From the NCBI GenBank assembly GCA_000708835.1, contig DF237402.1:1-53582 (forward strand): a stretch of 53,582 bases of DNA, written 5' to 3'. Each line of letters opens with the position of its first letter. The stretch's first letter is position 1. Position numbers and translations under genes: made by a program. A model generated the notes under the pieces. That model was not told the DNA's origin. It worked only from the letters and a program-made list of their open reading frames with translations, and ran no database searches. This DNA comes from Klebsormidium nitens. Taxonomy: Eukaryota; Plantae; Klebsormidiophyceae. This document shows positions 5,776 to 41,293 of this stretch, in pieces.

Positions 5776-6702
5776 ATGCCCTTCCATTCCGGAATGGCAG
5801 ACTTGGATCGATCCGACATGGAGCGCCCTGACGCTGAAGTGGGCGAGTGTGCGATCACAAACGTGGCACCCCCGCTCTTGCTGGAGCTTCTGCTCCACCA
5901 CTCGGACATCAGAGTGCCCGCCCTGACCGCGCTAGCATGCACCGCAACCGACTTCAGCGCGGCGGTGAACGAGCTTTGGCCTTCGATGATGGCAAAATTT
6001 TCGGAGAGCTGTCAGAATGAACCGACTACTCCCCTGACCGCGAGACAGATTCCGGTCGAAGCCTTTCGTAAAACTCCCCACCCGGCCAGCGCTTGCAGGG
6101 TTCGGGCGTTGACTAGACCGAGAGGCGAAGGCTTGAACTTGAGCTTCGAATTCGAGGAAGAAGGCTCAGAATGGACGCGCCAGGACGCTCTGATGACGGT
6201 GTATACTGCTCGCTACACGTATCGTCTCAGCACGGCAGACATTCGTCAACTCCAACCATACACAGGCATGTACAATGACAAGTACTACAGATTCGAAGAC
6301 GTTCTGGGGGCGGGCATGCTCCGATTCGGGCGACGGCCTTATCTGGAGCGCCTCCTCCGAAGACCGATCCGGGAGCATCCGCAGATCGAGAAGAGGAGCA
6401 CCGGCTGGAATCATGTGATGCGGTTGCACCAGAGGGTGGCCCCGGAAGTCATGCTCGACACGAGAACACTTCAAGCATATGCCGAGGAGTACATGAAGTC
6501 GGGCGTCGGGATCAATGTAATCAGGAGCCGTCTGTGGTCGCACAGATTCTTCTTGCAGCAGGTGTCTCAGCTGGTGCCCCATATGAACGTGGCCGAGCAG
6601 TCACGAGTTAAGCATCTCCAGAAAGCTTACGTCTTGACGAATGACTATGAGCTGGTCCGAGAAGCTACCAGGATAATGATAGCAATAACAGGACTTCACT
6701 GA
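5776..6702 (+). CDS. F-box-like protein with XPA-C-like helical domain, paralogue 1
   Basis: N-terminal PPLLLELLLHHSDIRVPALTALACTATDFSAAVNELW fits the F-box pattern; TARYTYRLSTADIRQL...YYRFEDVLGAGMLRFG resembles XPA-C-like folds; clear paralogue at 7247. Confidence 0.6.
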   Translation: MPFHSGMADLDRSDMERPDAEVGECAITNVAPPLLLELLLHHSDIRVPALTALACTATDFSAAVNELWPSMMAKFSESCQNEPTTPLTARQIPVEAFRKTPHPASACRVRALTRPRGEGLNLSFEFEEEGSEWTRQDALMTVYTARYTYRLSTADIRQLQPYTGMYNDKYYRFEDVLGAGMLRFGRRPYLERLLRRPIREHPQIEKRSTGWNHVMRLHQRVAPEVMLDTRTLQAYAEEYMKSGVGINVIRSRLWSHRFFLQQVSQLVPHMNVAEQSRVKHLQKAYVLTNDYELVREATRIMIAITGLH

Positions 6703-6748
6703 GGGCTGATGATCCTTGGGACGCGGCTACAACAATCAATTCGTTCTG

Positions 6749-7132
6749 ATGTCAACGATATCACCATGGGTAACGGCGCCCACGAACTTTGGCGCGGTCA
6801 GTGGAGCTCGGGCACGCGGGCACGTTAGCTTAGGAAGTACCGCATTCAAACAGCTCAACGCTATGAGGCACTCGTGTTCCTTTTCACAGAAGGGAAGGAT
6901 TTCTTCGGACTTGGCATGGTTGCTTGACCTTCCATCAAGTGTCCGCATCAGTCGGCCGCAACTGACTCGAATAATCGGAAATTGGCTCCGGGCAAACGAT
7001 TTGATAGAGAATCGTGTTCTAATATACGTAACCTACGACATGAGTTGCGTATTTGGAGCCGAAAATGGAAGTTTCATTTCTCACTTTGCACTACAATCGT
7101 TTCTACGATCACATTGGTACAAGACTGCATAA
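6749..7132 (+). CDS. SWIB/MDM2-domain protein
   Basis: ISSDLAWLLDLPSSVRISRPQLTRIIGNWLRANDL...YDMSCVFG...ISHFALQSFLRSH matches the SWIB consensus; stand-alone SWIB genes are common in NCLDVs. Confidence 0.75.
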   Translation: MSTISPWVTAPTNFGAVSGARARGHVSLGSTAFKQLNAMRHSCSFSQKGRISSDLAWLLDLPSSVRISRPQLTRIIGNWLRANDLIENRVLIYVTYDMSCVFGAENGSFISHFALQSFLRSHWYKTA

Positions 7133-7246
7133 GGCGGAGCCATCGGCTGCTTCCTTGGAACCACTACCTACCGGCAGCGGATTCTATACCGAATCACGTG
7201 AAGCAATAGTTATGTAAGCACCCCTTAAGGACAAAGGTCGGGCCAG

Positions 7247-8153
7247 ATGCCCCTTCATTCTAACATGGAGCCTGTCAGCAACCGCTCGAAAGAATGCGCA
7301 ATCGAAACTCTGGCAGCCTCCCACCTTTTGGAGCTGCTTGTCCATCATTCAGACATCCAAGTACCGTCTCTGACCGCCTTGGCATGCACAGCAAAAGCCT
7401 ACAACGAAGCGGTGGACCAGTTGTGGCCGTACCTCATGACCAAGTACGAGGCCGAGTGTGGGAGGGGCCCGGCCGCGGCACTGACGCCCAGGCATACGCC
7501 AGAAGAGGATGTTGAGAAGAATCTTGAGGATGGCTGTGAAGTTTTCGCCGAACGTATTCCGGGCGGCAAAGGCTTCAGACTGAAGTTCGAATTTGAGGAA
7601 GAAGGGAGCGACTGGACCCGGCAGGAAGCTCTAATGCCTTTAAAGACCGGAGCTCGCAAGGTATACCTGCTCACTGCTCCAGATCTCCGCCTCCTACAAC
7701 CGTTCATAGTTCCAGGTGCGAGACGAGATCCTCTTCTCCGTGGAAAGTTTTACAAATTCGAAGATGTTCTGGGGGCGGGCATGCTTCGGTACGATCGGAA
7801 ATCCTATGTAGACCGTCTCTTGAAGAGACCGATCCGGGACTGCACGCAGGCGGAGCTGAGGAGCGATCGGTGGGAAATGGTGAAATATCTCCCCATCGTG
7901 CATCCACCGATCCTACTCGAGCCTCCCTTGCTGAACAATTATGCGAGCAGTTATATCAGAACGGGGATCGGACTCAAGGAAGTGCAGCAACGTCTTTTTC
8001 TCACAGTACGTCAGCGCTCGTACGCACCAACACATGAACCACCCGGAGCAAGTAAGAGTGGCATACCTTCAGAAAGCATACGTTTGGACGCAAGAATTTC
8101 AGCTCGTCTCAGATGCGGTAGCAATCATTCGAGAGACGCGAGGAGTCTACTAA
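7247..8153 (+). pseudogene. F-box-like protein paralogue 2, frameshifted near 7995
   Basis: Shares FEFEEEGS.WTRQ.ALM and FEDVLGAGMLR with 5776-6702. The homologous C-terminus (FFSQYVS...HMNHPEQVRVAYLQKAYV) lies in another frame (7941-8153). Confidence 0.65.
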
Positions 8154-8982
8154 AGGACGTCGATCCTTGGGACTTTGAATGGGGCTGGCGATATTGCCAG
8201 AGGGGCAGGCACGTCCGTGTCTTCGACCGGTGAATAAGTCGTAGGGATCAAATATGTCTTGACGACAGCAGGAAGCACCCCACCGACGATCGGCCCTGCT
8301 ATGAACACCCAAATGTGCTTCCAAGCCTCCTTCGGCGCCGTCCCGATGCAGCGATCACAGCACCCAAGCTGCGTGCCGGATTAACGCTACATCCGTCGAT
8401 AGGGATCAGAGCAAGATGCGCCACTATAATCGCAGCGCCTACAGCCACATGTACCATGAGTCCCAGAACGTGTCGCCCGATGTCGTTCACAGGCAGAAGC
8501 CCTGTCACCTGCAGCACAAGTGTTACAAGGAGAGAGGTTGCAATTATTTCGGCTAAGAGAGCTTGCCACAGACCATATCCCGGCTGAACAAAGTTGACGG
8601 CCTGACTTGCGGCATAATGCTCATGATTCGAAACGGCCCGTGCAAGTAAAGCACCACACGTGGCTCCAACAACCTGTGCAACAATGTACACGACTCCCGT
8701 AAGTATGTCTACCGACCGTTGCACCATGAATGCAATAGTCACGGCTGGGTTGAGATGCGCGCCCGAAACATTTCCAAAGCAAAAGATCAGACCAGCTATG
8801 CTGGTCCCAAAGACTGTGGCTACTCCGATCGGTGCGGCTGCCGAACCATCGACTGAGCTTGGCCCATAATTCACAACGGTACACACTACTGGAAATAGAA
8901 AGTAAGCTGATCCCAAGCACTCTGCCCCAGCTGCATTGCAGAGCCTGAGCACCTTGTTGTTACGGCGGTCTGTGGAGGCCAT
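8150..8982 (-). CDS. Aquaporin (MIP), orthodox water-channel type; 1-nt frameshift near 8343
   Basis: SGAHLNPAVT and GCSVNPARSLG (two NPA boxes). Adding one G at the GGG run restores the sixth helix AWKHIWVFIAGPIVGGVL and a TAG stop at 8150-8152. Confidence 0.9.
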
Positions 8983-9033
8983 GTGGTAAGTTCGTCCCAG
9001 AAAACATTTGGCTTCAAAAGTCCACGCTTATTA

Positions 9034-9503
9034 CAGTTTTCGTCGAAAATGTCGCCTGAGATATGTAACGCTTGAAGATCTGAATGTGCGTTTAAAACCC
9101 CCTGAAAATTCTCAGAAGGTACTGTATGTTCTAATCATGAGCATCACTTGTTACCGACTGGAAGAGTGGCTAGTACTGTCCTAAGCGTGCCCCGTCAACA
9201 TACGGTATGAGACCTCCATCAAAAGGCCCATCTTTGAGCTTCCCTGAAGCGCGATTGCACGCTGTGCAATGTACCAGCGTCGCTTGGATTTGGGCTGGAG
9301 GTCTATGGCATGGCATAGGAGTATCAGTACTTGTCCACAAAAAGGAACAGTATTCTTCAGTACCAGTTACTCTGGTCAGGCTCTGCCTACCAAGGACGCT
9401 GGGCGGCTGAGGGATAGCCAGTTAACTCTGTTATTATTGCTAATTATCGCCTTTTCTTGTGGCCCCCGTTACATAATAGGGGCGACAGTTTGGGCGAAAA
9501 TGG
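9034..9503. mobile_element. MITE (TA-flanked, Tc1/mariner/Stowaway-like), copy 1
   Basis: 470 bp, near-identical to 41294-41764. Imperfect terminal inverted repeats (cagttttcgtcgaaaatgtcgcc...tatgtaacg versus cgttacata...ggcgacagtttgggcgaaaatgg); TA on both sides; non-coding. Confidence 0.85.
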
Positions 9504-9534
9504 TAATAAAAAAGGAGAGCCTATTGCAGATTCC

Positions 9535-10899
9535 ATGGCCCTCCATTGGAAGTTCAAATGGAAATCGGAGGCGGATGAGAAGACACAATTGAAAGCCCGT
9601 TGCCTGGATCTGGAACGGAAGCTCGCGCATGCTCAGATGACATTGGCGGTCGCACAAGAACAGGTCGCGGTGTCTGTCGGTTCCAAAGACGAATTCACGA
9701 AGCGGGTCGCTCAGCACATCAGGGTGCCGATGCACGGTATCATCCAGGTCTGCTCGTCGATCATTCAGGACCACGGGGTACTCGCCAGCACGTGCTCCAA
9801 GGTCGAGATCGTCTGCCTGACGAGCACCCAGGTGCTGAGCACTTTGAACGAGCTCCTGCAGATCAGTTCCACAGAGAACAGCAGAATGTGCACGGAAAAC
9901 GTCGCCTTCAACCCGCGGAAGCTGGTGGACGCGGTTCTCAAGCAGGTTGACCAGCAAGTCGAGAGCAAGAACGTACGAGTCGTCCAGCTGGTGGATGGGC
10001 GCACGCCCACCTCACTTGCTGGGGACATGTCCAGACTCCGGCAGGCTCTCGGGATCGTTCTCGAAGTGCTTCTGGATGCGGCACGGGACTCGGAGATGCT
10101 GGAAATCCGGGTGAAGCCGCTGCACGGCGACGATCCCCTCCTCGAGTCGATGATCTGCTCGAGCCGCTACATATCATGCCTCTACGAGCTGTGTCTGGCC
10201 CACCCAGCGGGAGAGGACAGTATCATGGTGAGGGTAGGGCGAGACCCTGACCGCGAAGACCCCCAGCTCATCGCCGTAGCCGGCAGGTTGGAGCTGATGG
10301 GCTGGCGGTTGATGCGCTCGGTCGACAGCAGGGCTTTTCAGATTATCGTCCACGTCAAGCGCGCTCTAGAGGGGAGCGGGGCCAGCCAGCGGTATAGCCT
10401 AAGTCGCGACGTGCTCCTCAAGGAACGCAAGCTGACCATCTTGCTCATGGAGGAGAATCCGATTTTCCGAAGCACGATCTGCCAGCAGCTTGGGCAGGAA
10501 GGGCACACCGTGGACGTCGTGCGCAACGAATCGGAGGTATGCAAGCTCGCTGAGGACGGTACGATACATTTGAACAGAGTACGGCTGCGTGCTGATCGAC
10601 ACTACCAGCGGGGCCAAGGACCTCCTCGACTGCATAAGGCAACGCGAAGACTGATGCGATGCAACAAGATGCCAGTGGTCCTGATGGTGGGTCACGGTTT
10701 CGAAGATTGGGAAGTGCGTTACAAGGAAGCGGGAATCGACACGTACCTCCTCAAGCCGTGCACGAGCGAAGTCCTCAAATCTCGCATAGGAGACGCCATC
10801 AGCGCCGCGACAGCCCTCGTCGACATCGAAGAATTGTCGGAGCAGAGTCTCTCGAACGAGAGCGTTCTGTCTCAGTCTGAGCTTCCACTGAAGCAGTAG
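9535..10899 (+). CDS. Degenerate hybrid histidine kinase-response regulator (soluble, no sensor domain)
   Basis: KDEFTKRVAQHIRVPMHGIIQ (H-box-like), AGDMSRLRQAL, receiver KLTILLMEENP...AGIDTYLLKP. The listed GTG start at 9457 lies inside the MITE, so ATG 9535 is preferred. Confidence 0.8.
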   Translation: MALHWKFKWKSEADEKTQLKARCLDLERKLAHAQMTLAVAQEQVAVSVGSKDEFTKRVAQHIRVPMHGIIQVCSSIIQDHGVLASTCSKVEIVCLTSTQVLSTLNELLQISSTENSRMCTENVAFNPRKLVDAVLKQVDQQVESKNVRVVQLVDGRTPTSLAGDMSRLRQALGIVLEVLLDAARDSEMLEIRVKPLHGDDPLLESMICSSRYISCLYELCLAHPAGEDSIMVRVGRDPDREDPQLIAVAGRLELMGWRLMRSVDSRAFQIIVHVKRALEGSGASQRYSLSRDVLLKERKLTILLMEENPIFRSTICQQLGQEGHTVDVVRNESEVCKLAEDGTIHLNRVRLRADRHYQRGQGPPRLHKATRRLMRCNKMPVVLMVGHGFEDWEVRYKEAGIDTYLLKPCTSEVLKSRIGDAISAATALVDIEELSEQSLSNESVLSQSELPLKQ

Positions 10900-11789
10900 C
10901 GCTCAATAGCGTTCTTAAAGAGTCCAAAATTAGTAGGGGCCCTGGCGACGTCGTCGACGACCTCGAAATCATCCTTGTCGGACATGAAAAAGGGGTAATT
11001 GAGAAGGTCTTGGATACAAGGGCGTTCGCTCTCGGGTTTGATGCAGTCGAGGATGAGGGACTTGAGATGCTTGTGCTTCACAAAGAGGAGTTCGTCGGGG
11101 GGCGTGAAATTCAGGATCTCCATGTAGAGTTGGCTGACCGTGCGAAAGCGCGTGTACGGCTTTCGGAGCGTGTACATCTTCAGCAAGGCCCTTCCAAAGG
11201 AATAGACGTCGGCCTTGTGGGTATACTTACCCTGAAGGCACTCGGGGCTCATGTATTCCGCCGTTCCCAGGACAGACAACGTTGTCCGTGACGAGCTCAG
11301 CACGGAGGCAAATTCTAGATCGCCCAATGCCACGTCGCCCGTGTAGTTGTTGACAAAGACGTTCGCACACTTCAGATCTCGGTGCGCAATGGGCATCGGC
11401 CTGTCGTGCAAGAAGCACAGGGCGTCGATGAGCTGCCGTCCCCACTTTCGGATGACGCTGATCTCCTGCTTGCCGTGCTTGCGGACGTACGCGTCGAGAG
11501 GAGAGCCATAGAGGTCGGTGATGATGATGAGATCCCGGCTGTTATCCACCCACGAACTCACCATCCGCACGATGTGGGGATGCGAAATCTCGGAAAGCAT
11601 CTGCACCTCACGGACAGCCCTCGAATTGGCTCCATAGCCAACCACCGCAGCGGGAACCTTGCACCACGCTACCTCGCAACCCTCCTGCCGGTCGAAGCCC
11701 TTGTACACCGTTTTCGAAGACCCGAAACCTATCGTCTCGTTGCTGCAAACGAACCGGCCCGTCAAGTCCTTCTTCAAGGCCTCCTGCAT
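10872..11789 (-). CDS. WNK: WNK-family Ser/Thr kinase, kinase domain only, copy 1
   Basis: GFGSSKTVYKGFD...EVAWC (Lys in the Gly-rich loop, Cys at the subdomain II Lys site), HRDLKCANVF, GDLE, GTAEYMSPE. Confidence 0.92.
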   Translation of the reverse strand: MQEALKKDLTGRFVCSNETIGFGSSKTVYKGFDRQEGCEVAWCKVPAAVVGYGANSRAVREVQMLSEISHPHIVRMVSSWVDNSRDLIIITDLYGSPLDAYVRKHGKQEISVIRKWGRQLIDALCFLHDRPMPIAHRDLKCANVFVNNYTGDVALGDLEFASVLSSSRTTLSVLGTAEYMSPECLQGKYTHKADVYSFGRALLKMYTLRKPYTRFRTVSQLYMEILNFTPPDELLFVKHKHLKSLILDCIKPESERPCIQDLLNYPFFMSDKDDFEVVDDVARAPTNFGLFKNAIERYCFSGSSD

Positions 11790-11870
11790 GGTCGCTCGCT
11801 ACGGTGTTCCAGGAAAACTTGCGTGCGTCAAATACTCTCGTAAATATACGTATTCCTACCTAGGGTAGAG

Positions 11871-13007
11871 ATGCTGGCAGCGCTAGATGTGTTCTCCGGG
11901 ATAGGCGGGTTTGCGAGAGCTCTGCAGGGGATCGCGACGATCAAAAGGTTCTGCGACATCGACTCAGCTGCACGGGCGTGCTTGCAGAAGAACATGGACA
12001 AAGGACTTTTAGAGAAGGCCGAGATCGAGACCGACATTCGACACTTGAAGGGGTCAAAAGATATCGACCTGATTGCTGCGGGCATTCCGTGCCTCGGATT
12101 CTCGCCACTGGGCCTTGAGCAAGGGAGGCTTCGAGCACGTCCGGACGAAGGTATTCTACGAGCTCCTCAGGGTGATCGACGAGTGCGAACCGAAGCTTCT
12201 CTTCCTGGAAAACGTACCGAATATAGTCCTGCATGGCATGCACACGGTGGTCGACGAACTGCATGACAGACGGGGGTACGATCTCTCGTGGGTCGTTTTG
12301 CCCGCCTACGCAGTGGGCGCTCACCACACAGGCCTACGGTGGTTCTGTCTCGCGAGGAAGCCCGGCCTCGACCTGAGTTGGGAAGGGTTGCGCTTCGTGC
12401 CACACCGTTTCGACACCGAGGACGCGCCACCCAGGGTGATCGGCCAGGAAGATCCGGGATGGGTAGAGAGGGCGAAGAGGTGCTTTCTCTTGGGGAACAG
12501 CATCGTGCCTTGCGTGGCCCGCCTTGCCTTCTTCCTGCTGGCCAGTGGCTTCAGGCAGGGTGATATATCCGCTCCCACACTGGTCATGGGTGAGCCGAAT
12601 CCAGCCCTGTGCACGGTCGTCGACGAAACTCACCCCGGTTTCTACTTTCCAAAGTGGGGAGGGGTCGACTCGTGCAGTGTTTACAGCATCCCGATTATGC
12701 ACTTCAAGCGGCCAGAGTTGCAGCTTCGGCTGCTCCAGAAACCCAAGCTCGAAGTCCTACTCACTGACAAGGTTACCTCCCCGGTCATCTATTCTCGATT
12801 CATGCGACTGTGGAGCACCCCGAGGTCGGGCTGGATGCGTGGGCTCCAGCCGCGTCCTAACCGACAGAAGTAGTCGTGACCTCCCGAACCAGGTGAAGTT
12901 TGAGGTAGGCACCCCAGACACAATTAGACATGGGCAGCTGAATCCCGATTCCAAGGGTTGAGATTGTACTGATGGGGTATCCCAAAGGATATACGTGCTT
13001 CAAGTAG
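11871..13007 (+). pseudogene. C5 cytosine DNA methyltransferase with about 3 frameshifts
   Basis: DVFSGIGGF (motif I), AGIPCLGFS (catalytic PC), FLENVPNI, RWFCLA, LLGNSIVP. The C-terminal LTDRSSRDLPNQVKFE...LNPD and VEIVLMGYPKGYT lie in shifted frames; stop at 13005-13007. Confidence 0.88.
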
Positions 13008-13068
13008 GTTATTGCGTGGGCCTCGGGTGCGGCGAGAGGACTGCAATTCTTCTCCTCGCAATAGATCA

Positions 13069-13449
13069 ATGGAGGCAGTCTCCACATCCATCAACAAAGC
13101 CAAGAGGGTGTTGCAGGTCAACATCGCTCCCCGATGCATCAAAGAAACCGGGCCCACCAGCTTTGCGGCAAAGCTTCGGAACGTTGCAGACGAGGCAAAG
13201 AGCTCGAAGTCGGCTGGTAAGGTCGACAGGGTGGTAGTCATAGTGGACGGCACGGGCGCGAGCGAGTGCGGGTCGGCTGCACTGAAGGCTCTCGGCCAGC
13301 TGTTCAGCCTCGAGGACTGCAGCCTCTTGGACGTGGTCAGTACGATCCTCCTGATCAACGCGGACGAGACGTTGAAGGCTGCCTGAGCGATCGCCAAGCT
13401 GGTCGAGCCGGCCAAGAAGTACGCCTCGCTCGGTCGGGTGCTCGAATGA
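13069..13449 (+). pseudogene. CRAL-TRIO/Sec14-like small protein with internal TGA at 13384
   Basis: VVVIVDGTG...ALKALGQLF...VSTILLINADETLKAA*AIAKLV resembles the CRAL-TRIO core (D..G...K.L...I.IINA....W.I.K) if TGA was TGG; the frame stays open to 13449. Confidence 0.5.
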
Positions 13450-13467
13450 GCCTATACTCGAGTGAGC

Positions 13468-13929
13468 CTACCAGAAGGGCATCAAAGTCCAGAAGAATGA
13501 TGGTGCTGTAGAGATCTCCTCTGTTTCGTCCCAGTTGAAGCTGGGTGACTGAAGCGACTCGACGAGTTCAAAAATGGCGTCCTCCTCCGTCCAATCCATT
13601 GGCAGACCCCGGTCGTCATACACTCGACCGTCCGGTGGTGCAGTGGATGTGGAGGAGATCTCCCGTTCGCTCGGGACAGCCCTGCATATTGGGCAATCTC
13701 GTTTCTTTTTCAGCCACTCTAGGATGCACGACCGGCAGAAGGCGTGCGAACAGCCCAGCATGAAGCGGTCCGGGACCTGAATCGCCACGAAGCATATGGG
13801 GCAGGTCTCTTCCTCGGGACCAGCCTCGGCGATCACGGGCTCGTTCGGCCTGTGATGTCTGCAATAGGTAAAGCCTCCTGCATGGTTTCGGCATGCTGTT
13901 CCTTGTTTCGTGAGGCCCTTGCATAGCAT
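13468..13929 (-). CDS. RING-finger (C3HC4) E3 ligase with N-terminal small Cys/His knuckle
   Basis: CPIC...CSHAFCRSC...CPICR; N-terminal CKGLTKQGTAC...YCRHH. Confidence 0.9.
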   Translation of the reverse strand: MLCKGLTKQGTACRNHAGGFTYCRHHRPNEPVIAEAGPEEETCPICFVAIQVPDRFMLGCSHAFCRSCILEWLKKKRDCPICRAVPSEREISSTSTAPPDGRVYDDRGLPMDWTEEDAIFELVESLQSPSFNWDETEEISTAPSFFWTLMPFW

Positions 13930-14025
13930 CTTTCATTATGTTTGTACGAGCAATTTTTGTGGCAGACATCTCTCGCACGAGATGTCTCGCAGCTCACTTT
14001 TTTTGTGGTCTTATCTCAGATCGAG

Positions 14026-15299: not shown

Positions 15300-15346
15300 C
15301 ACGGTCATTGAAAATAAAATGCACATGTTACATTACATCGTCGCGC

Positions 15347-15808
15347 ATGGATAACCACCAAATACTGTTGCTCGCGGCAGGATGCGTTCTGCTCTACTTC
15401 ATATGGTCGAATTGCTCAGAGGGATTCATTGATGAAGGCTTTAGATCAGCAAAGAGGGAGGTGAAACAGGCAGCAGGGGATGTCGAGCGTGTTGCCGGCA
15501 AGGCGGCCAGAGGGGTCGGTAAGGCAGGCAAAAGGGGCGCTAAAGGGGTAGGCAAGGTGGCCGGCAAGGTGGTGGGAGGGCATAAAAAGCGGGGTGACAT
15601 GACCGGATTGACATTCGTGTGTAAGGCTGTGGACTTTGGTAACATGGGAGGAGGGATGCGCGCGGGTGCGATGATTGGGCCGATGGCCCCCGGGCAGAAA
15701 GGCAAGGGAGGCGCAGGTAAAAATCGTAAAGGGCCCCGAAATAACCCGACTAAGGGGATGGTAGCCGAGCGAGGCTTAAAGCCTTCTAAGCGAAGGGGTA
15801 CGCGTTAA
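15347..15808 (+). CDS. Putative virion membrane protein (N-terminal TM, E-G-F motif, basic Gly/Lys-rich tail)
   Basis: MDNHQILLLAAGCVLLYFIW then SEGFIDEGF; TM followed by E-G-F is a recurrent signature of NCLDV small structural proteins. Confidence 0.55.
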   Translation: MDNHQILLLAAGCVLLYFIWSNCSEGFIDEGFRSAKREVKQAAGDVERVAGKAARGVGKAGKRGAKGVGKVAGKVVGGHKKRGDMTGLTFVCKAVDFGNMGGGMRAGAMIGPMAPGQKGKGGAGKNRKGPRNNPTKGMVAERGLKPSKRRGTR

Positions 15809-15849
15809 AGCGTTCCATTTCCTCTCACGATGGCCCTGAATAAGTCCTT

Positions 15850-16845
15850 TCAAATCCAACTGCTCAGGTCCTTGCAGTGGCCGGTACTACAGAAGCCGTA
15901 TCTAATGGTACCCTCCTTATACACGACATTGACGACTGGCACGTGAATGTCGCTATCGATTGCCCCATGCACGTACGTGGCCTTGGGTGTTGTCTGGATG
16001 CGAACCTCCGTCGTCTCGACCGGGAAGAGCTCCCGCCCCTTGTACATAATTGCCATCGTGGCCTTTCCCTCGAAATCCGGGAAGCCTTCGGCGGTCAGCT
16101 CGGCAAGAACACCGCCCTTGATCAGCGTGTGCCCCTCCTCCGACGCCTGCTCTGGCTTGCCAAAAGGGAGCAGGGTGAGGCTTGCCTCTCCGAAGCAGAA
16201 GCGGATCTCGAGACCCCGGGCAGCCTCGTCTGCTAGAGCCGTCACGAAAGCCGGGAACGGCTGGCCATAGTGGAGAGGCAGAAAAGCGATGTCCACGAAC
16301 GCGTCGTGAGCGGGGCGGTCGAAGTCAGCCAGTGCATTGCAGGCCGTGTGAAGCTCCCTCGCGATGCGTTCGAAGGAACGCCACACCTCAGCCAGCTTAG
16401 TCGCCCGACGCACGAGGTTGTCTCCGGTGTGCATACTATCCCCCAGCGGGCTGTCTCCATAGATCTCCTCGGCGCAGTAACCCAGGTTGTAGAGGTCTTG
16501 CACCTTGTCTACAAACTTGGTCCTTGTCTCGGATGCTGCCACAGTATGGGTGGCCGCAAGAACGCGCACCCATCCGTATACCTGTGCCACGTCTGCCATC
16601 AGGCTGGCAATCTCGTCACTATCATGAGCTTCCCTGAGCTTGGAGACTCGCCGCAGCGCCCAGGAAAAGTAGCGGAGGGCGTTCCCGAGGTCGCCAGCAT
16701 GATCACCTTTGCTGCCCAGCCGTTCAAAGCAGCTGTCCATTTCCAGGTCGAATGAAGCCGCCCCGCGGAGCAGCTCGAGAACTCGCATGGCTGCCATTCC
16801 TCGGTCGAAGGATGTCGGTTTGGGAGGTTTCTGAGAATGAAGCAT
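15850..16845 (-). CDS. Hypothetical protein (331 aa)
   Basis: Long ORF occupying the gap exactly, with protein-like composition; no family recognised. Confidence 0.55.
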   Translation of the reverse strand: MLHSQKPPKPTSFDRGMAAMRVLELLRGAASFDLEMDSCFERLGSKGDHAGDLGNALRYFSWALRRVSKLREAHDSDEIASLMADVAQVYGWVRVLAATHTVAASETRTKFVDKVQDLYNLGYCAEEIYGDSPLGDSMHTGDNLVRRATKLAEVWRSFERIARELHTACNALADFDRPAHDAFVDIAFLPLHYGQPFPAFVTALADEAARGLEIRFCFGEASLTLLPFGKPEQASEEGHTLIKGGVLAELTAEGFPDFEGKATMAIMYKGRELFPVETTEVRIQTTPKATYVHGAIDSDIHVPVVNVVYKEGTIRYGFCSTGHCKDLSSWI

Positions 16846-17167
16846 TTTGAAATGGACCCTGTCAAAGGGCTCACCTCACATGCGCCATCCTCTGCCACAC
16901 CCCAGCAGCAAAGCTTGCCACCTCACAAAGAGCAGCAAGAGTCTAGCAGGACATTCGTTGCCAAGGCATGCAAGAGGGCGCCACCCATGATTGGCTTAGG
17001 GGCTGCGGTGAGGGTTCATTTACAAAGTCCGATGCAAGCGCCCGACTTCCTCCTGGAGCCGCTCCTCCCCGGCGACATCTACCAAACAGGACGCAGCCAG
17101 ATCAGGATCTGCAGGGCAGCGGGAGGGTTTTTCACGCTCGATCGGGAGAGTGTTCGGGCGGAGACGT

Positions 17168-17995
17168 ATGGAGGACTACGACATGCCGCAGAACCAGGAG
17201 GGGAGGGACGTGGGAACGACGGAGACTGTCTACGGGGAGTGGACGAGGAAGTTGCACGGCTGGAGGCGCAACCAGCCACTACCAGAGTACGCAGGTCTGC
17301 TAGACAAGATGACAGAGTACTTCAAGCGCCACGCGTTCGCTCCAAACAACGAGCTGGAGGTGCGGCTGGGAAAAGTGCACGAGAAACCAAGGCGCTTCGA
17401 ACCGGGGGTGTCCGCGAACATGTTTCACAAGATCCTGGAGGGCCTCCGGAGCTATCAATCCTGGGAGGACGAGACGGTGACGAGACACACTGACTACCTC
17501 ACCGGCGAGAGGCGGCTGCGTGTTTACGAGGACCCGGGGATGCCACCTGAGCTAGTCGCCAAACGGTCTCTGGTCTCCTTGGATGTCGTCTCGATGGGGT
17601 CTCCGTTCGATTTCCGCTTCTCAATCGCAAAAGAGAAGGTCGTAGAGGCGACGGAGCAGGACATAACCAGCATCACGGCAAACGCCAAGCATATCCGGCA
17701 CAAGGAGCGCATGACCTTCGCCTACAAGGCATGGCTCTTTGACCTGACCATAGTGCGAAGCCAGAGTGGGGCCTCTTCGGTGCCGACAGACGACTGCTTC
17801 GACGACACGTCCGAGGAGAGGAACGGAGGGCGGGTCTACGAGGTGGAGATCGAGCTCCGAAATCTCGCGACCAAGGTCAAAAAGACGGCTTTCAACGCGA
17901 TGAGGCTCGCAGACTCCACCCTGATAAAGCTCTTTGATCTGATGAACTTTGTCGAAGAGGTGGATGTGGAAAAGCTCTCATTCCAACCTAGCTGA
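17168..17995 (+). CDS. CYTH-superfamily mRNA-capping RNA 5'-triphosphatase (stand-alone)
   Basis: NELEVRLG (motif A), RRLRV, DFRFSIAKE, RHKERMTF, WLFDLTIV, YEVEIEL (motif C). Confidence 0.85.
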   Translation: MEDYDMPQNQEGRDVGTTETVYGEWTRKLHGWRRNQPLPEYAGLLDKMTEYFKRHAFAPNNELEVRLGKVHEKPRRFEPGVSANMFHKILEGLRSYQSWEDETVTRHTDYLTGERRLRVYEDPGMPPELVAKRSLVSLDVVSMGSPFDFRFSIAKEKVVEATEQDITSITANAKHIRHKERMTFAYKAWLFDLTIVRSQSGASSVPTDDCFDDTSEERNGGRVYEVEIELRNLATKVKKTAFNAMRLADSTLIKLFDLMNFVEEVDVEKLSFQPS

Positions 17996-18023
17996 AAGTA
18001 AATCAGGCAAATAGCAGGGGTCT

Positions 18024-18962
18024 ATGTCTGCCAGCTGCCGGATCATAGATACCAGCCCGACCGGAAAGTATGTCAGGTATGCAGAGGTCATCGGCAGGGG
18101 CTCCTACAAAATCGTTCATAGAGGCTTCGACAGAGAAAGAGGGATCGAGGTCGCATGGAGCAAGATTGTACTGAGCAAATTAGAGGTGAATGACGATTTC
18201 CACGACCAGATTCAACGGGAGGTAGATCTCCTCAAAATCATTCGTTGCACCAGTGTGGTTGAGCTCTTTGACGCATGGTTCGATCCTGAACGAAACGAGT
18301 TCCATATCGCGACAGAGCTCTTTCTGAGTGGGAGCCTAAAGGACTATCTCAAACGCCACGGACACATTGCATTGCCTGTGGTCAAGAGATGGACGCGAGA
18401 CCTTCTGGAGGGCCTCGTCTACCTACATGAGCAAGAACCACCAATCGTCCATAGGGATGTCAAGTGCGACAATATTTTCATCAGAGGGGACGTTGGGCAG
18501 GTCAAGTTGGGCGACCTTGGCCTGTCCACCCTCAAGAACAGGTCTTCGATGAGCAGTGTCGTCGGGACGCCAGAGTTCATGGCTGAAGAGATGTTTAACT
18601 CCGAGTACGACAAGAGAGTTGATTGTTACTCCCTGGGGATGTGCGTGCTCGAGATGACGACCCTCGAATACCCGTTTGCAGAATGCAAGAATATTGCACA
18701 GGTCTACCGTAAAGTCATGGAACGAAAGCCCCCAGACTCCCTGCAGCGGATCAAGGAGCCAGAGTTGAAAACCTTCATAACGAGGTGCCTCGCCCGACGA
18801 AGCATCAGGCCCACCGCGAAAGAGCTCCTGAGCGACCCTCTGTTGAGCGATTGCAATGACCCCAGCCCTCTGCTCGCAGAGCACAAGGCGATCCTGATCA
18901 GAGTAGAGCCCATAGATACGACGGCACCAAAGATTCCGAGACTGCTATCCTGTTGCTTTTGA
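18024..18962 (+). CDS. WNK: WNK-family Ser/Thr kinase, copy 2
   Basis: GRGSYKIVHRGFD...IEVAWS, HRDVKCDNIFI, VKLGDLGL, SVVGTPEFMAEE, YPFAECKNIAQVYRKV. Confidence 0.93.
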   Translation: MSASCRIIDTSPTGKYVRYAEVIGRGSYKIVHRGFDRERGIEVAWSKIVLSKLEVNDDFHDQIQREVDLLKIIRCTSVVELFDAWFDPERNEFHIATELFLSGSLKDYLKRHGHIALPVVKRWTRDLLEGLVYLHEQEPPIVHRDVKCDNIFIRGDVGQVKLGDLGLSTLKNRSSMSSVVGTPEFMAEEMFNSEYDKRVDCYSLGMCVLEMTTLEYPFAECKNIAQVYRKVMERKPPDSLQRIKEPELKTFITRCLARRSIRPTAKELLSDPLLSDCNDPSPLLAEHKAILIRVEPIDTTAPKIPRLLSCCF

Positions 18963-18965
18963 AGC

Positions 18966-19460
18966 TCAGAAGAAGAAGCTGTTGTTGTTCTTGCAAGTCA
19001 GTTCTCGCCCTGCAGTGGCTGCGGTGATGTAGGGATTGGAGTAGATGGCGGACTCACCGACTCCCCCCTCCGAAGGCCGCAGCTCCCTACCGTAAATCGA
19101 GTGCATGGGCTCTTGCCATTGACCACAGCTAGCAACGGGTATCGTCGTGGTATCATACATCGGTTGGAAATCTGGGCCGTATCGGCTCGGAGGCTCGAGG
19201 AAATGGGGCTGCCTCCGGGAATACTCCATCAGCCGGGGCGGACCCCCACCCGTCATCGGAGGGGGGCGGTAGCGCTTGGCGGCATGCCTCCTCTGCAACT
19301 CGACATGAAGTGCCTCGGTCGACACCCCGTCGCAATAGCGGGTGATTCCATCTTTGTACATCAGAACCGTCAGCGTGAGCATGTGCATAAAGAGCAGAGA
19401 AACTATCAGAATCACGGTGGACCAAGAGATATCGTTCATCATCCTGCCCCTATATGACAC
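18966..19460 (-). CDS. Hypothetical protein with N-terminal TM helix and Pro-rich tail
   Basis: WSTVILIVSLLFMHMLTLTVLMY hydrophobic segment; tightly packed between WNK copy 2 and TBP. Confidence 0.5.
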   Translation of the reverse strand: MSYRGRMMNDISWSTVILIVSLLFMHMLTLTVLMYKDGITRYCDGVSTEALHVELQRRHAAKRYRPPPMTGGGPPRLMEYSRRQPHFLEPPSRYGPDFQPMYDTTTIPVASCGQWQEPMHSIYGRELRPSEGGVGESAIYSNPYITAATAGRELTCKNNNSFFF

Positions 19461-19477
19461 TCATGTGTATAATTTTT

Positions 19478-20395
19478 TCAACGCTCGACCACCTGAAAGG
19501 TGGGGAGCTCGGTCGCTCTCTCGTCCATCTTATCCTCGATCAGCTCCAAAAACGAGCGCTTTCCTACTCGCGACCGCTCCTTCTTGGCGTTGTCTTCCTC
19601 CCACGCCGGAGTGCGCCCCTGACTGTTTAGGACGGTTGGGCTCTCCGTGACGGCCCCGATGACGAAAGCAAACGCTTGGGCGATGTCTTCCATCCGCTTC
19701 GCACCCGTTACGATGACGCTCTCGCTCTTGAAAGCCAGGACGGTGGCGCTAGCGAACTTGATGTTGCAGCCGGGGAAGTGGTCGGGTTCGTAGCGGCAAT
19801 AGACGCCATATTTTCCCGTGATCGTGTCCCGGAGTGCCTCCAGGTTGATGGGAGTGTTGAGACGAAAGTCCGTGTTGATCATCTGAATCTTTGCTGACTG
19901 GACCTTGACCGGCCTTTCCACCTGCGTACAGTCCGGACGGAGGGCCCTGATCGTCCGGATGACTACCTTGAGCGTGCCAATTGCCTCTCCGGCACTTCTC
20001 GCACCAGTCAGGTGGAACTTTCCGTTGGCAAACACCTTGCAGTTCTTTCTGGTGGTGCCGACCTTGCCGGGCGTGTAGCGGAAAGACACCTGGTTGGTGA
20101 ACTTTGCCTGCTTGGAGGCCGTGGCAATCAGGGAGATCGACCCGAGAGCGGGTTCCGCTGGGACCCGGTCCGTGACCAACGAGGCCTCTTGCAACATCTT
20201 GATGTCGATCTTGCAGTCCGTTTGGAAGATGACCGTCAGGGTAGATACGTCCGGGACGCTGGCAGGCGGGCCGTCGAGGCCCTTCCTCTGCAGGGTGCCG
20301 CTCATGGCTGCAGATGCGGCCCTGACGTCCCCCTTCCAAGACTCTATGAAGCTCTTGATCGCCGCCGACCTTGTGTCCAAGACGGGACCCTCCAT
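19478..20395 (-). CDS. TBP: Divergent TATA-binding protein (viral type)
   Basis: Two TBP repeats: FTNQVSF...CKVFANGKFHLTGAR and IQMINTDF...INLEAL...RYEPDHFPG...VLAFKSESVIVTGAK. Confidence 0.85.
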   Translation of the reverse strand: MEGPVLDTRSAAIKSFIESWKGDVRAASAAMSGTLQRKGLDGPPASVPDVSTLTVIFQTDCKIDIKMLQEASLVTDRVPAEPALGSISLIATASKQAKFTNQVSFRYTPGKVGTTRKNCKVFANGKFHLTGARSAGEAIGTLKVVIRTIRALRPDCTQVERPVKVQSAKIQMINTDFRLNTPINLEALRDTITGKYGVYCRYEPDHFPGCNIKFASATVLAFKSESVIVTGAKRMEDIAQAFAFVIGAVTESPTVLNSQGRTPAWEEDNAKKERSRVGKRSFLELIEDKMDERATELPTFQVVER

Positions 20396-20449
20396 TGCCT
20401 AACCCTCTCAGTCCTTAAGCCCCTTTTTTCAGAGAGTACTGAAAGAAGA

Positions 20450-20818
20450 ATGAACACAGTTCACTGGCTCCTCGCCGGCGCCCTCCTCGCCCTCGCAATC
20501 CTTGCCCTGCACTCACTACAGATCTCTCCTGCTCGGTACTCGTTCACGTTTTACCACCTCCCCGGTTGCAAGTACTGCGAGGAGGCCATGCCTGCATGGA
20601 GGGAGCTGCAGAGGATCTACTGGGGCCCGGCCGTCCTCAGAAAGGTGAACGCAATGCGAGCAAAAGAGGAAGTGAACGGCCTGGGAATAGATGGCCTTTC
20701 CGCGTATGTTCTGTTCGACGGCAACACGGGATTCGCCTACAAGTACGAGGGGGCCAGGACAGCTCAAGCGTTTTCACGATTCTTGGCAGAGACGTTTACC
20801 GAAAAAAAGCGCAGGTAA
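20450..20818 (+). CDS. Thioredoxin-like protein with N-terminal membrane anchor
   Basis: WLLAGALLALAILAL, FYHLPGCKYC (CxxC), YEGARTAQAF; the true start is the internal ATG of ORF 20012-20818. Confidence 0.8.
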   Translation: MNTVHWLLAGALLALAILALHSLQISPARYSFTFYHLPGCKYCEEAMPAWRELQRIYWGPAVLRKVNAMRAKEEVNGLGIDGLSAYVLFDGNTGFAYKYEGARTAQAFSRFLAETFTEKKRR

Positions 20819-20827
20819 AGTAGGATC

Positions 20828-21375
20828 ATGGTCACGCTCTTGGAAGGTGCTGCAGTGGCTGGCTCTTCGCTTTTTCTCTATCTCGCCCTCAAGCCCGAGG
20901 TGGCAAAAAGCAGGACCGGCATGGCCTACATCAAGGGCCCCCACGCCCAAGAGTTCATGAACGTGGTGAATACAGACATCGACCGTTTGTTGGCTTGGCT
21001 GAAGAGTCACCCCGAACTGCTAGCGGATCCCAGGTGGAAAGGCTGGTCCAGAGGTACAAGACCAAGATGCAGCCGATCGCAGAAGGAGAGGGAGGGGCGG
21101 CTTACACTCGAAACAAGTCGGACGTGCGGCTGTGCGTCCCAGAGTCCCTCGAGGAACGAGACGTCCAGACCGGCCTCTTTGTCGCACTCCACGAGCTGGC
21201 TCACATAGCAAACGTGAGCTGGGGCCACGACCAAAGCTTCTGGGACACGTTCAGAGACCTTCTCAGACTGGCTGTGAAAGCGAGGATCTATAAGAAGCGC
21301 AACTATAAGCACGACCCAGCACGCTTCTGCGGTCAGGATATAATGAGCCAACCTCTGGACTGGAAAACTCCTTAA
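20828..21375 (+). CDS. WLM-type zinc metallopeptidase of NCLDVs; 1-nt frameshift near 21037
   Basis: AYTRNKSDVRLC...FVALHELAH...GHDQSFWDTFRDLL...YKHDPARFCG; N-terminal TM half in the adjacent frame. Confidence 0.85.
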
Positions 21376-21443
21376 GTACCCTTAACGATCGCCAATGAGC
21401 GCCACACTGGTGCCAGCATGCGCCCCCTCCTGCCTCGGATGTA

Positions 21444-21782
21444 CTATGCCAGCGGCCGTCTGATTGTTTGCTGTCTTTGATTGGTGATGTACAGGCAGAC
21501 GTTTCCTTTGTTGGTGAGGACATAACTCTCGCTCCACAACAAGATGAAATTGTTCCCGTGGCGAGCGGCATCAGCTGTGGTGGCCGCATACCTGAGCACG
21601 TAGCTATCAGGAATCTTCTGCAATTCTTTCTCGTTTGCGTCAAGGAAGAATAGCCTGGCGACACTTCCATCGAGCCTCTCTAGCTTGATTTTCCAGCCAT
21701 CGTTGAGATCGAAGATGCGAATCTTGTCCCGCCCGTAAGAGAATAGTTCGTCACGGTGCAACGCCATAGACGTATCTGTCAT
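21444..21782 (-). CDS. Hypothetical protein
   Basis: Fills the gap between convergent/divergent viral genes; no motif recognised. Confidence 0.45.
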   Translation of the reverse strand: MTDTSMALHRDELFSYGRDKIRIFDLNDGWKIKLERLDGSVARLFFLDANEKELQKIPDSYVLRYAATTADAARHGNNFILLWSESYVLTNKGNVCLYITNQRQQTIRRPLA

Positions 21783-21960
21783 CTCGAGGCCTTATTGTAT
21801 TTGGCAGAATCGGTGGATAAACTAGACGCGGTCGTTCATGGCAACATCAGTGGCACTGGCAAAGTCCGGGGTGGGCAATTGCGGACGATGGTGCTCGTTT
21901 TCGAGCTTAGGGAGATTGCATATGAAGAGAAGCAAGCACATGGCAGTAGCATCCATCGGC

Positions 21961-22494
21961 ATGCACATGAACCCACGAGTCGTACGGCTTCTCGAGCGAC
22001 AGAGATACAAGACCCCTTACCAGCAGCACCTCGCAAATTTTGCACCAGGGGGGCGTGGACTGACACCTCGCCCGGTCCCAAACATAGAGGCAGCCCGTCA
22101 CGGTCTGCTCTACGAGAAGGAGGCAATACAGAGGTTCCAGGAAATCACGGGCATCCGGGTTCTTGATGTCGGCCATGTGGTCCACGAGCGCTTTGACTGG
22201 CTCTCTTGTGTCCCAGACGGGATAACCGTCGATGGAAGGGTGGCCGAGATAAAGTGCCCTTACTACCGGCGGATCGTTCCAGGGGTCCCCAATCACTGCG
22301 TAAAACAACTGCAGATTGCAATGGAGGTCACCGACCTCGACGAGGCCATCCTCGTGCAGTACAAACCCGCAAGCGTCTTCGGAGTGGAAGAGATCATGAT
22401 ATCGACCCTGGCCCGAGATAGGACCTGGATCCACAGGAACTGGTCTCGACTGCACAAGAAAGGGCAGTGGCTGCAGCCTCCAGCCGCGGCCTGA
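21961..22494 (+). CDS. YqaJ/lambda-exonuclease family recombinase
   Basis: AARHGLLYEKEA, WLSCVPDG, EIKCPY, QLQIAMEVTDLD, VQYKP; the N-terminal QRSxEW/LTAS region appears degenerate. Confidence 0.85.
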   Translation: MHMNPRVVRLLERQRYKTPYQQHLANFAPGGRGLTPRPVPNIEAARHGLLYEKEAIQRFQEITGIRVLDVGHVVHERFDWLSCVPDGITVDGRVAEIKCPYYRRIVPGVPNHCVKQLQIAMEVTDLDEAILVQYKPASVFGVEEIMISTLARDRTWIHRNWSRLHKKGQWLQPPAAA

Positions 22495-22530
22495 GTTCGG
22501 TGACAATTTCGTGAACCCGATTAAAGAGCC

Positions 22531-22752
22531 ATGGCATCCAATGCACCCTCGACCAAGAAGACCACAAGATGGAGCGACATGGTCGACCATGAGCCGGGGC
22601 CCATCGACCCCAAGATTCTAAAGGGACTACAGTATAGTTTCGGAAAGGCGCTGACGGAGGGGGAGTTCAAGGCGCAGCAAGCAAAGGGAGGAGCGAGAGT
22701 GGCCAGGAGCTTAGACCTACGAGACATCATGCGCACGGGCGGAGAGAAGTAG
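22531..22752 (+). CDS. Small hypothetical protein
   Basis: 73 aa ORF in tandem packing between YqaJ and TFIIS. Confidence 0.4.
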   Translation: MASNAPSTKKTTRWSDMVDHEPGPIDPKILKGLQYSFGKALTEGEFKAQQAKGGARVARSLDLRDIMRTGGEK

Positions 22753-22804
22753 GTACGCAGGGGCTTACGGCCAACGGTGTTTTTCTGGCAGTCTACTTCC
22801 ATCA

Positions 22805-23341
22805 ATGGTTGGAGTTGGAGAGCCGCCACTCCGATCCTTTGCGAGGCAGCAGTTTTCACAGCTATTCGAACAGCCCCCAGACTCCGGGATGGTCATCAAT
22901 GCTGAGGTCGGTGTCTACAACACGGCCGTAAAGGGCTGTGGCAACTTGTTCGGAGCCGGCTCGTGCACCTGGACCAATCCGAGATTCAAGAGCAAGTACA
23001 AGGAGAAGCTCCGGTCATTGTTGTTCAACCTTCGGAACCCGAAGAACCCGGCCTTCCTCGACAAGGTGAAAGCAAAGGAGATCGGATGCAGGCACCTCGC
23101 GTCTTTGTCCCCAGAAGACATGTTCCCCGAAAATTGGACCTCGCTTAAAGCAAAACTAGCAAAAAAGCACGTCTTCTCGGCGGACCTCTTGGATAATGTT
23201 CCCGACAATCCAGTGCACGTCTGCAGCCACTGCAACTCTAGGAAGATCACCACGTACGAACTGCAGACGTTAGCCGCCGACCAGTCGACCACGACTTACA
23301 TGATGTGCCAGTCCTGCTCCCACTGCTGGAAGATATTTTAA
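22805..23341 (+). CDS. TFIIS: Transcription elongation factor TFIIS (domains II-III) with altered acidic hairpin
   Basis: WTNPRFKSKYKEKLRSLLFNL, LSPEDMFPENW, CSHC...QTLAADQSTT...CQSCSHCWK (canonical QTRSADEP). Confidence 0.9.
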   Translation: MVGVGEPPLRSFARQQFSQLFEQPPDSGMVINAEVGVYNTAVKGCGNLFGAGSCTWTNPRFKSKYKEKLRSLLFNLRNPKNPAFLDKVKAKEIGCRHLASLSPEDMFPENWTSLKAKLAKKHVFSADLLDNVPDNPVHVCSHCNSRKITTYELQTLAADQSTTTYMMCQSCSHCWKIF

Positions 23342-23745
23342 GAATTGATCTTGTTGATGACATTCGCATGGTCGACAGATGCATTGGCGTGAGCCTTTAG
23401 GGCGTGATTCGTCACCATGTTAACTATTTTGGGAGGGGCACCCGCGTTCCCCGCATTGAGCGCGGCTTCGTGAGAGAGTCTCGCCGCATTCTGACTGGCC
23501 TCCAGAGTAGCAATGGTCGCTTCAAGGACCGCCTGCTCGTGGTCCCCATTATCGAGAGCATTCTTTGCAATCATGTGCATGTTGTCGGCGGCATGCATCT
23601 CATCGATCGCACCTGTCGCTTTGCCCAAGGCCTGAGATGCAGAATCGTGATCCTGAGGCGTCTGAGCGGCCTTGTTCCCCATGCCAGCAATCTCCAACGC
23701 ATGCTTTGCACTCTTGCGAGCGCTCTGAACGGCCTTGGCAGCAGT
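23338..23745 (-). pseudogene. Ala-rich helical protein, 5' end replaced by a repeat element
   Basis: The protein-like part (TAAKAVQSARKSAKHALE...NKINS) begins exactly where the CCGGG-rich element ends. Confidence 0.5.
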
Positions 23746-41287: not shown

Positions 41288-41293
41288 TTAATA

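Follow-up and report, generated by a model that had tools for sequence, protein, structure and literature searches.

An integrated giant-virus block in Klebsormidium nitens encodes a TFIIS with an altered catalytic hairpin, a possible brake on host RNA polymerase II

A block of viral DNA in contig DF237402.1 of Klebsormidium nitens encodes a TFIIS in which the hairpin LAADQ (23270-23284) replaces R-x-x-D-E. The whole stretch of DNA that was analysed, 53,582 nucleotides in length, is referred to here as the window. The explanation that best accounts for the data as a whole, put forward tentatively and with somewhat less than even confidence, is that this is integrated viral DNA whose TFIIS, predicted to bind Pol II without stimulating cleavage, slowed the transcription of the host as a naturally occurring dominant-negative factor. 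The TFIIS hairpin is the new point; the insertion and the gene set are ordinary.

The viral TFIIS (22805-23341, plus strand) contains domains II and III without domain I, and was identified by Pfam matches to TFIIS_M (E 2.8e-15) and to the Zn ribbon (E 7e-8). Domain II, the linker, the Cys4 zinc ligands and the hairpin length are preserved, and the hairpin change affects two of the three catalytic positions (R to L and E to Q), with the D retained. In the clade of the window TFIIS, whose members share 62-99% identity and include several near-duplicates, 15/16 sequences carry LAADQ, 1/16 carries LAADH and 0/16 carry DE. Four hairpin residues (L, A, A and D) do not vary across the 16, compared with only 69 invariant columns among the 170 of the alignment overall. 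Among the best 150 of 2,115 profile-search matches, 146 kept the motif Qx[RK]xxDE. Before counting, sequence P0028 was excluded as the gene model of the window itself, along with P0027 (a YqaJ fragment), P0032 (TBP), and P0183 and P0186 (other ORFs); P0081, P0132, P0142 and P0157 were omitted from the tree only. Sequences P0018, P0020, P0023, P0029, P0031 and P0033 lie on metagenome contigs of 35-142 kb. In this quick tree, the viral TFIIS was placed apart from the clade that holds most of the long, cellular-type rows. In a sister clade, one member of which comes from K. nitens, the hairpin is shorter by two residues. The predicted structure of the viral TFIIS was poor (pLDDT 58, with the zinc ribbon under 50), and a fold search with this model returned no match at E ≤ 0.001.

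The acidic pair of TFIIS is nearly invariant. The metal is held in position by D290 and E291, with R287 as a possible stabiliser of the transition state (PMC7111264; PMC9860460). In yeast, E291A alone inhibits intrinsic Pol II cleavage (PMC3152337). Forms in which the pair is neutralised are toxic to yeast, human cells and Arabidopsis alike: acting in a dominant-negative manner, the double mutant kills yeast, stunts Arabidopsis, and in human cells affects long genes the worst (PMC6863433; PMC8886746). In the papers examined, no test of the E-to-Q change itself was found, and searches by title and opening of the abstract, in journals open without subscription, listed none reporting a virus-encoded TFIIS without the acidic pair. 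The viral TFIIS is predicted with good confidence to be cleavage-dead, and partial cleavage activity is possible, with one aspartate remaining.

The preliminary description had placed TFIIB, TBP, TFIIS, a stand-alone RNA triphosphatase and SWIB within 17 kb. The first four were borne out by Pfam matches, all over the curated cut-off, and together with a probable SWIB gene they occupy 6749-23341 (16.6 kb). The TFIIB gene (14391-15299, plus strand; E 2.5e-16) is in frame, with a Zn ribbon, both cyclin folds and a diverged B-reader, and its product can be aligned to Pol II TFIIB over almost the full length. TBP (19478-20395, minus strand; E 1.9e-14) has a complete saddle and carries E where 12/12 relatives have G. 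Its predicted structure (pLDDT 79) matches solved TBPs, with TMq values of 0.53-0.58 to the top viral matches compared with 0.43-0.49 to solved cellular TBPs; the top named fold matches comprise both the HaV01 TBP and proteins of Mimiviridae. The triphosphatase, a stand-alone CYTH-type RNA 5'-triphosphatase (mRNA_triPase; 17168-17995, plus strand; E 1.9e-9), is in frame and has its nearest clusters in the Nucleocytoviricota, and a PDB sequence search gave no useful match for it. In terms of the SWIB gene (6749-7132, plus strand), the sole evidence came from Atlas features, which matched a 94% viral SWIB cluster at 0.91 and placed the protein nearest to Nucleocytoviricota clusters, with no Pfam match even at E ≤ 5 and no PDB match. 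Relatives of TBP, TFIIB and TFIIS occur on same-sized contigs (43,476, 40,422, 12,721, 11,792 and 11,592 bp), an indication that their linkage is conserved, and one candidate upstream motif (CTTAnGG) is common to the three genes. The set had also been described as a kit for hijacking host Pol II. The chlorovirus-type kit of TFIIB, TBP, TFIIS and stand-alone triphosphatase is indeed present in the window, but it is a weak sign of hijacking because TFIIB and TBP belong to the genes that are broadly common to giant viruses, and because members of the Mimiviridae, a family with an RNA polymerase of its own, are among the fold matches.

These four genes lie in one dense block without introns, and the coding share of 5776-23745 is 88% (25 chosen ORFs). 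An ORF of unassigned function (5776-6702, plus strand) has a 46% identical paralog (7247-8233, plus strand) that has an apparent frameshift near 7,990. The block also encodes an MIP/aquaporin with both NPA motifs (8299-8982, minus strand), a degenerate hybrid histidine kinase/receiver (9535-10899, plus strand), and an intron-free Ser/Thr kinase (10872-11789, minus strand) that we take to be WNK-like from its motif, with a second such kinase at 36% identity (18024-18962, plus strand). A C5 cytosine methyltransferase (11871-12873, plus strand) and a WLM metalloprotease (20828-21375, plus strand) are each broken across two frames. Further genes encode a RING finger with a DUF5763-like N-terminus (13468-13929, minus strand), a thioredoxin-like protein (20450-20818, plus strand), and a YqaJ-like viral recombinase/exonuclease (21838-22494, plus strand) in which an indel near 22,459 distinguishes runs X5 and X6. 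CpG depletion in the block is slight (0.85-1.06) and has no bearing on methylation, and no tRNA genes were found in the window.

The last ORF of this part of the block (23338-23745, minus strand) is cut at 23745/23746 by a host transposon of 17,312 bp (23746-41057). The block had been thought to end at 23,745, which is the edge of this transposon, and viral DNA picks up again at 41,061. Transposons of the CACTA/EnSpm class are defined by terminal inverted repeats (TIRs) beginning with CAC, a 3-bp target duplication and subterminal repeats. All of these features are present in the inserted element, which has TIRs of the form CACAGGG...CCCTGTG, the target duplication AGT, and 14 and 12 subterminal CCGGGCA motifs, and which we take to be CACTA/EnSpm-like from its ends. 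Its long ORFs at 32.8-39.6 kb had no fitting Pfam, PHROG or NCBIfam match. The insertion site is empty in run X5, and further copies of the element occur in run X1. A host MITE of about 484 bp with terminal inverted repeats also lies inside the block (9027-9510); it is multi-copy, with a near-identical copy at 41287-41771, and its site at 9027-9510 is empty in run X7. The region past the large transposon (41061-47988) contains this second MITE copy, an SP-RING ORF, and three antirepressor-like paralogs (44457-45458, 45690-46484 and 47485-47988) that are likely to be of viral origin. A capsid-like nature had been suspected for the ORF at 43666-44229 and was left unsupported; a PDB sequence search gave no useful match. 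Integration is well supported because the transposon and the MITE interrupt the viral DNA and their sites are empty in independent runs, and that the block is integrated giant-virus DNA can be regarded as close to certain. The preliminary description had overlooked both these transposons and the altered TFIIS hairpin.

The genes of the block lie nearest to those of giant viruses, are densely packed and intron-free, and have host transposons among them, all of which are features of endogenous Nucleocytoviricota elements and agree with the earlier proposal of an endogenised giant virus. Zero family matches to RNA polymerase, PolB, MCP or A32 were found among the window ORFs scanned (46 + 26), as had been stated beforehand, and the hallmark VLTF3 was likewise absent among them; of seven marker genes, the window carries TFIIB only. 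The K. flaccidum genome of a 2017 study is presumably the one now labelled K. nitens. That study placed four genes of the inserts (DNA polymerase, MCP, ATPase and VLTF3) in the Phycodnaviridae (PMC5294986). This placement and the HaV01 fold match make the suggested Algavirales-like affiliation plausible, although the window has no hallmark marker. The suggestion that there is no obvious cultured representative held up in scans of viral contigs, which turned up no cultured or IMG/VR relative. A genome-contig scan found no locus. A metagenome scan found 80 loci, which were left out of the analysis: their TBP matches were distant (23-44% identity along part of the protein), and the close relatives were not among them.

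While the virus was active, its TBP and TFIIB would have recruited the Pol II of the host to viral promoters, with capping started by the triphosphatase as it is in chloroviruses. With its altered hairpin, TFIIS would bind Pol II via its conserved domain II, plug the pore and oust host TFIIS, and with host TFIIS displaced, backtracked Pol II would stay unrescued. Host genes that are long and spliced, and those induced by stress, would then suffer more than viral genes, which are short (0.2-1.4 kb) and have no introns. We consider it probable that the factor would act on host Pol II, and a role as a brake is modestly favoured over one as a recruiter. Counting against a brake is that transcription of the virus itself would also be slowed if it relies on Pol II. 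The human TFIISmut is a weak inhibitor that exchanges readily and is required in large excess over the wild type (PMC6863433). In a broader proposal, which we regard as rather doubtful, Klebsormidium giant viruses would have made TFIIS a poison of host Pol II, possibly twice (by the neutral LAADQ tip and by the shortened tip), with a gene-length-selective shut-off as the result in a virus that itself depends on this polymerase; no earlier case of a virus with a natural equivalent of the laboratory dominant-negative TFIIS is known to us.

A cleavage-dead TFIIS could instead be a recruiter that loads host Pol II at viral promoters with viral TBP and TFIIB, the unneeded catalytic tip having been dropped. 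The initiation role of TFIIS is independent of cleavage, TFIIS accompanies TBP and TFIIB in relatives, the candidate upstream motif is common to all three genes, and the shortened hairpin of the sister clade suggests that the tip is dispensable. TFIIS can also be counted as a pre-initiation factor (PMC7111264), but the viral protein is without domain I, which is said to serve initiation (PMC4026522). A dispensable tip would moreover be expected to drift, yet LAAD is invariant in 16/16 sequences, and we consider recruitment unlikely. It is less likely still that this is an ordinary but divergent TFIIS that stimulates cleavage, be it weakly or by acting on a polymerase of the virus in which the missing charges are provided. 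The D, the zinc ligands and the hairpin length are all conserved, and RNA polymerase genes are possible elsewhere in the element. Against this, two of three catalytic positions depart from the form kept in 146 of the best 150 of the 2,115 wider matches, a change at E alone suffices for inhibition in yeast (PMC3152337), the inserts were assigned to the Phycodnaviridae in the 2017 study (PMC5294986), and chloroviruses are without a polymerase (PMC7019647).

Broken genes are present in the block (the split methyltransferase and WLM genes, apparent frameshifts and the G-to-E change in TBP), and the hairpin change might be a single event of pseudogene decay that followed integration and spread as the insert was copied. 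However, the lesions that were compared with other copies are each confined to one copy, and relatives down to 62% identity share the tip in frames that are mostly open, for which selection is needed. Decay is accordingly very improbable, and the LAADQ hairpin, as judged from the aligned sequences, is a fixed trait of the lineage. Least probable, to the point of being scarcely credible, is a contig that is a chimera of free virus and host DNA. No single compared contig spans the whole block, no host housekeeping gene could be recognised in the window, and the window may itself derive from X1. Nevertheless, the multi-copy MITE and the 17.3-kb element with its target duplication lie within viral DNA and their sites are empty in other runs, viral genes are broken, the depth of unique viral pieces in X1 (11-16) is not above that of the flanking DNA (16-19), and the same run has a second, diverged syntenic copy of the block. 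The window proteins are identical to K. nitens gene models across 163-301 residues.

Viral inserts in Klebsormidium have been on record since 2017, and chloroviruses, whose TFIIS keeps Asp-Glu, have this gene set as a rule. The 2017 study of phycodnavirus-like inserts in K. flaccidum (Gallot-Lavallee and Blanc 2017, PMC5294986) describes, as here, several diverged inserts in a Klebsormidium assembly, contigs dominated by viral genes, and captured plant-like genes. That study differs from the present analysis in relying on five core markers, and the available part of its text makes no mention of TFIIS, TBP or a transposon-split viral gene; the present contig may be depicted in its Figure S5. 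Chloroviruses (PBCV-1) likewise encode TFIIB, TFIID/TBP, TFIIS and a separate RNA triphosphatase and, as the preliminary description correctly stated, have no RNA polymerase; they take over the host transcription machinery by a mechanism that has been called unknown, as it is for polymerase-less giant viruses in general (PMC7019647). The block differs from chloroviruses in the altered tip of its TFIIS and in its host, a streptophyte alga that is kin of land plants, and no close sequence relatives were recovered. A viral clade with a fixed change in the acidic pair is a small candidate for host shut-off or polymerase capture.

The laboratory TFIISmut proteins (D290A/E291A and E291A) resemble the viral factor in that the Pol II-binding domain is intact and the acidic tip is neutralised. 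Their structures carry the tips RSAAAP (PDB 5xon) and RSADHP (PDB 3gtm), and the DH of the latter is also found in one viral relative. The viral change differs from these in that it is natural, fixed in a clade, keeps the D and also replaces R by L, and its effect is a prediction. The archaeal TFS4 (Fouqueau et al. 2017, PMC5715097) is similarly a homolog of a cleavage factor that has lost the acidic pair from its tip, and it inhibits polymerase in a virus-host setting, an activity that is predicted for the viral TFIIS. TFS4 is host-encoded, has three lysines and is proposed to serve in defence, whereas the Klebsormidium factor is virus-encoded, with a neutral tip and the architecture of a Pol II TFIIS.

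A block of short, closely packed, intron-free ORFs occupies approximately 5.0-23.7 kb of the window, with a coding share of 88% over 5776-23745 and a GC content of 56%, compared with 49% at positions 1-4900. The preliminary description had read this region as an endogenised giant virus carrying genes for hijacking host Pol II. Pfam searches recovered TFIIB, TBP, TFIIS and the RNA triphosphatase, while the proposed SWIB ORF was missed by both Pfam and PDB and was matched solely by Atlas (0.91, to mostly viral SWIB clusters). Consistent with that description, the ORFs scanned had no match to polymerase, capsid or packaging ATPase families. Pfam also confirmed YqaJ, RING, two kinases, an aquaporin, a receiver domain, a thioredoxin and part of a C5 methyltransferase; the WLM and HisKA matches were below threshold. 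Two intron-free WNK-like kinases (10872-11789 and 18024-18962) lie within the block alongside the aquaporin, and together these hint at genes captured from the host with a role in osmotic or ion control. By the usual motifs of both domains, the hybrid histidine kinase at 9535-10899 appears to have a degenerate receiver and a Q at the site expected for the phospho-accepting His, and may be a pseudo-kinase or a decay product.

The triphosphatase was closest to Nucleocytoviricota clusters (0.96-0.97). The TBP model matched giant-virus TBPs with TMq values of 0.53-0.58 (the three highest-ranking and the best viral matches), above the 0.43-0.49 obtained with solved cellular TBPs; the named top fold matches included both HaV01 and Mimiviridae and so point to no single order. 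Extensions at both the N and C termini are conserved in the viral TBPs. The viral TFIIBs (14391-15299 in the window) have a diverged B-reader and a conserved C-terminal LDLNL in 8 of 9 aligned sequences, the ninth being a fused gene model. The motif CTTA(A/C/-)GG occurs at 5754, 7224, 14348, 20419 and 22764, where it precedes TFIIB, TBP, TFIIS and two paralogous ORFs by 22-43 bases; it occurs again in a 57-bp repeat upstream of the ORF at 44457-45458. Five of 23 ORFs have it, against a frequency of 2.5% in random windows 70 bases long (p 2e-4, uncorrected for a motif picked after looking), and it is a candidate early promoter element.

Integration, as proposed in the preliminary description, is well supported, as a MITE and a large element lie inside the viral DNA and have empty sites in sequencing runs X7 and X5, respectively. 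The MITE, a 484-bp element with inverted ends at 9027-9510, has a second copy at 41287-41771 (97-99% identical) and a depth of 97-213 in run X1, versus 11-16 for unique viral pieces; one X7 contig joins both of its flanks. The large element (23746-41057; 17,312 bp) has inverted ends and densely placed subterminal repeats, is bounded by an AGT target duplication and interrupts a viral ORF; the right end previously placed at 23,745 is the edge of this element. Its empty site is seen in an X5 contig, which reaches 23,745 and then runs on for 30 letters that match the window from 41,061. These joints were called at 80% likeness, a level able to pick up other organisms; X1 is perhaps the window's own source, and X5 and X7 come from other studies. 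None of the run contigs spans the whole viral block. The methyltransferase, WLM, one paralog and probably YqaJ are broken, and X5 carries separate lesions of its own, which point to copies decaying independently.

The large transposon also contains a 190-bp array of four copies (27931-28697). Beyond it, three paralogous ORFs at 44457-47988 (43-46% identical to the first over ~129 residues), two of them with weak antirepressor matches, resemble a family common among giant viruses, and are probably further viral DNA. A 116-bp array was found at 47011-47358, and three diverged repeats ~2.3 kb apart at 48467-53172 share an ORF of no known kind. An intron-free ORF at 811-2388 (525 residues) has hydrophobic stretches and gave no match above threshold in family searches.

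The window's TBP, TFIIB and TFIIS are identical to Klebsormidium nitens gene models over 301, 291 and 163 residues, respectively, and in these models they are spliced to adjoining ORFs. Five public K. nitens models (P0001, P0195, P0026, P0028 and P0184) join neighbouring viral ORFs. The introns in the fused models are apparently false, and viral gene structure is thereby hidden. K. nitens has a second set, located on a contig of 43,476 bp, with a TBP 79% and a TFIIB 71% identical to those of the window. K. nitens was the only named organism among the close relatives of TBP (n=12, 51-79%), TFIIB (n=8, 52-71%) and TFIIS (n=8, 68-91%), several of which are on equal-sized contigs, suggesting that the genes stay linked. 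The insertion is already known in kind, because Klebsormidium inserts with five DNA polymerase, six ATPase, six MCP and five VLTF3 genes were reported and placed in Phycodnaviridae (Gallot-Lavallee and Blanc 2017, PMC5294986), and Klebsormidium is listed among carriers of giant-virus endogenisations (PMC11244446).

Alignment to solved TFIIS structures showed that the window TFIIS has QTLAADQ in place of the QTRSADE of Pol II factors. In the clade formed with its close relatives (16 sequences, 62-99% pairwise identity), the hairpin reads LAADQ in 15 and LAADH in one; L, A, A and D are among 69 invariant columns of 170. The profile search gave 2,115 hits; among the 150 best, Qx[RK]xxDE was kept in 146, the exceptions being the clade representative, a sister form and two further proteins (one apparently mis-called, one without a zinc ribbon). 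The sister form, which is the cluster closest after the clade itself, counts a K. nitens protein among its members; its hairpin is shortened by two residues and is missing the arginine. A quick tree gave the clade a support of 100 and, at 96, a group made up of the clade, the sister form and a single canonical sequence, with no branching order among the three, so that either one or two losses are possible. The strong conservation of the tip makes pseudogene decay a very unlikely cause of its alteration, and the variant is fixed in the lineage. The predicted TFIIS model was of poor quality; judged from its residues, the protein is likely cleavage-dead. Searches of the open-access literature turned up no description of such a variant, and a term search of the text available for a 2025 TFIIS family review returned neither 'virus' nor 'viral' (PMC12139180).

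In cellular TFIIS, D290 and E291 are reported to hold the catalytic metal in position, with R287 perhaps stabilising the transition state (PMC7111264, PMC9860460), and E291A alone is reported to inhibit intrinsic Pol II cleavage (PMC3152337). The TFIIS double mutant is described as a dominant-negative that traps backtracked Pol II, affecting long genes most, and as a weak, exchanging inhibitor (PMC6863433); it stunts Arabidopsis, in which TFIIS is required for stress reprogramming (PMC8886746). The viral TFIIS may likewise sit on host Pol II, and because it would occupy the enzyme without rescuing it from backtracking, long host genes would be hurt more than short viral genes, while viral TBP and TFIIB would direct initiation. 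The main rival is that viral TFIIS is a recruiter at viral promoters, acting independently of cleavage. Domain I of TFIIS is reported to serve initiation (PMC4026522); in the viral protein, the domain that binds Pol II is present and domain I is absent.

Overall, the insertion is of a known kind, its gene set is standard and its integration is well supported. The set of transcription genes is ordinary: TFIIB and TBP are described as broadly shared giant-virus genes (PMC8575486), and, in line with the chlorovirus precedent invoked in the preliminary description, PBCV-1 is reported to lack RNA polymerase and to encode TFIIB, TFIID, TFIIS and a separate triphosphatase (PMC7019647). The presence of these genes is no proof of RNA polymerase loss. 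Among natural systems, archaeal TFS4 comes closest to an inhibitory viral TFIIS; it is an inhibitor reported to be induced by virus infection and, unlike the viral TFIIS, is encoded by the host (PMC5715097).
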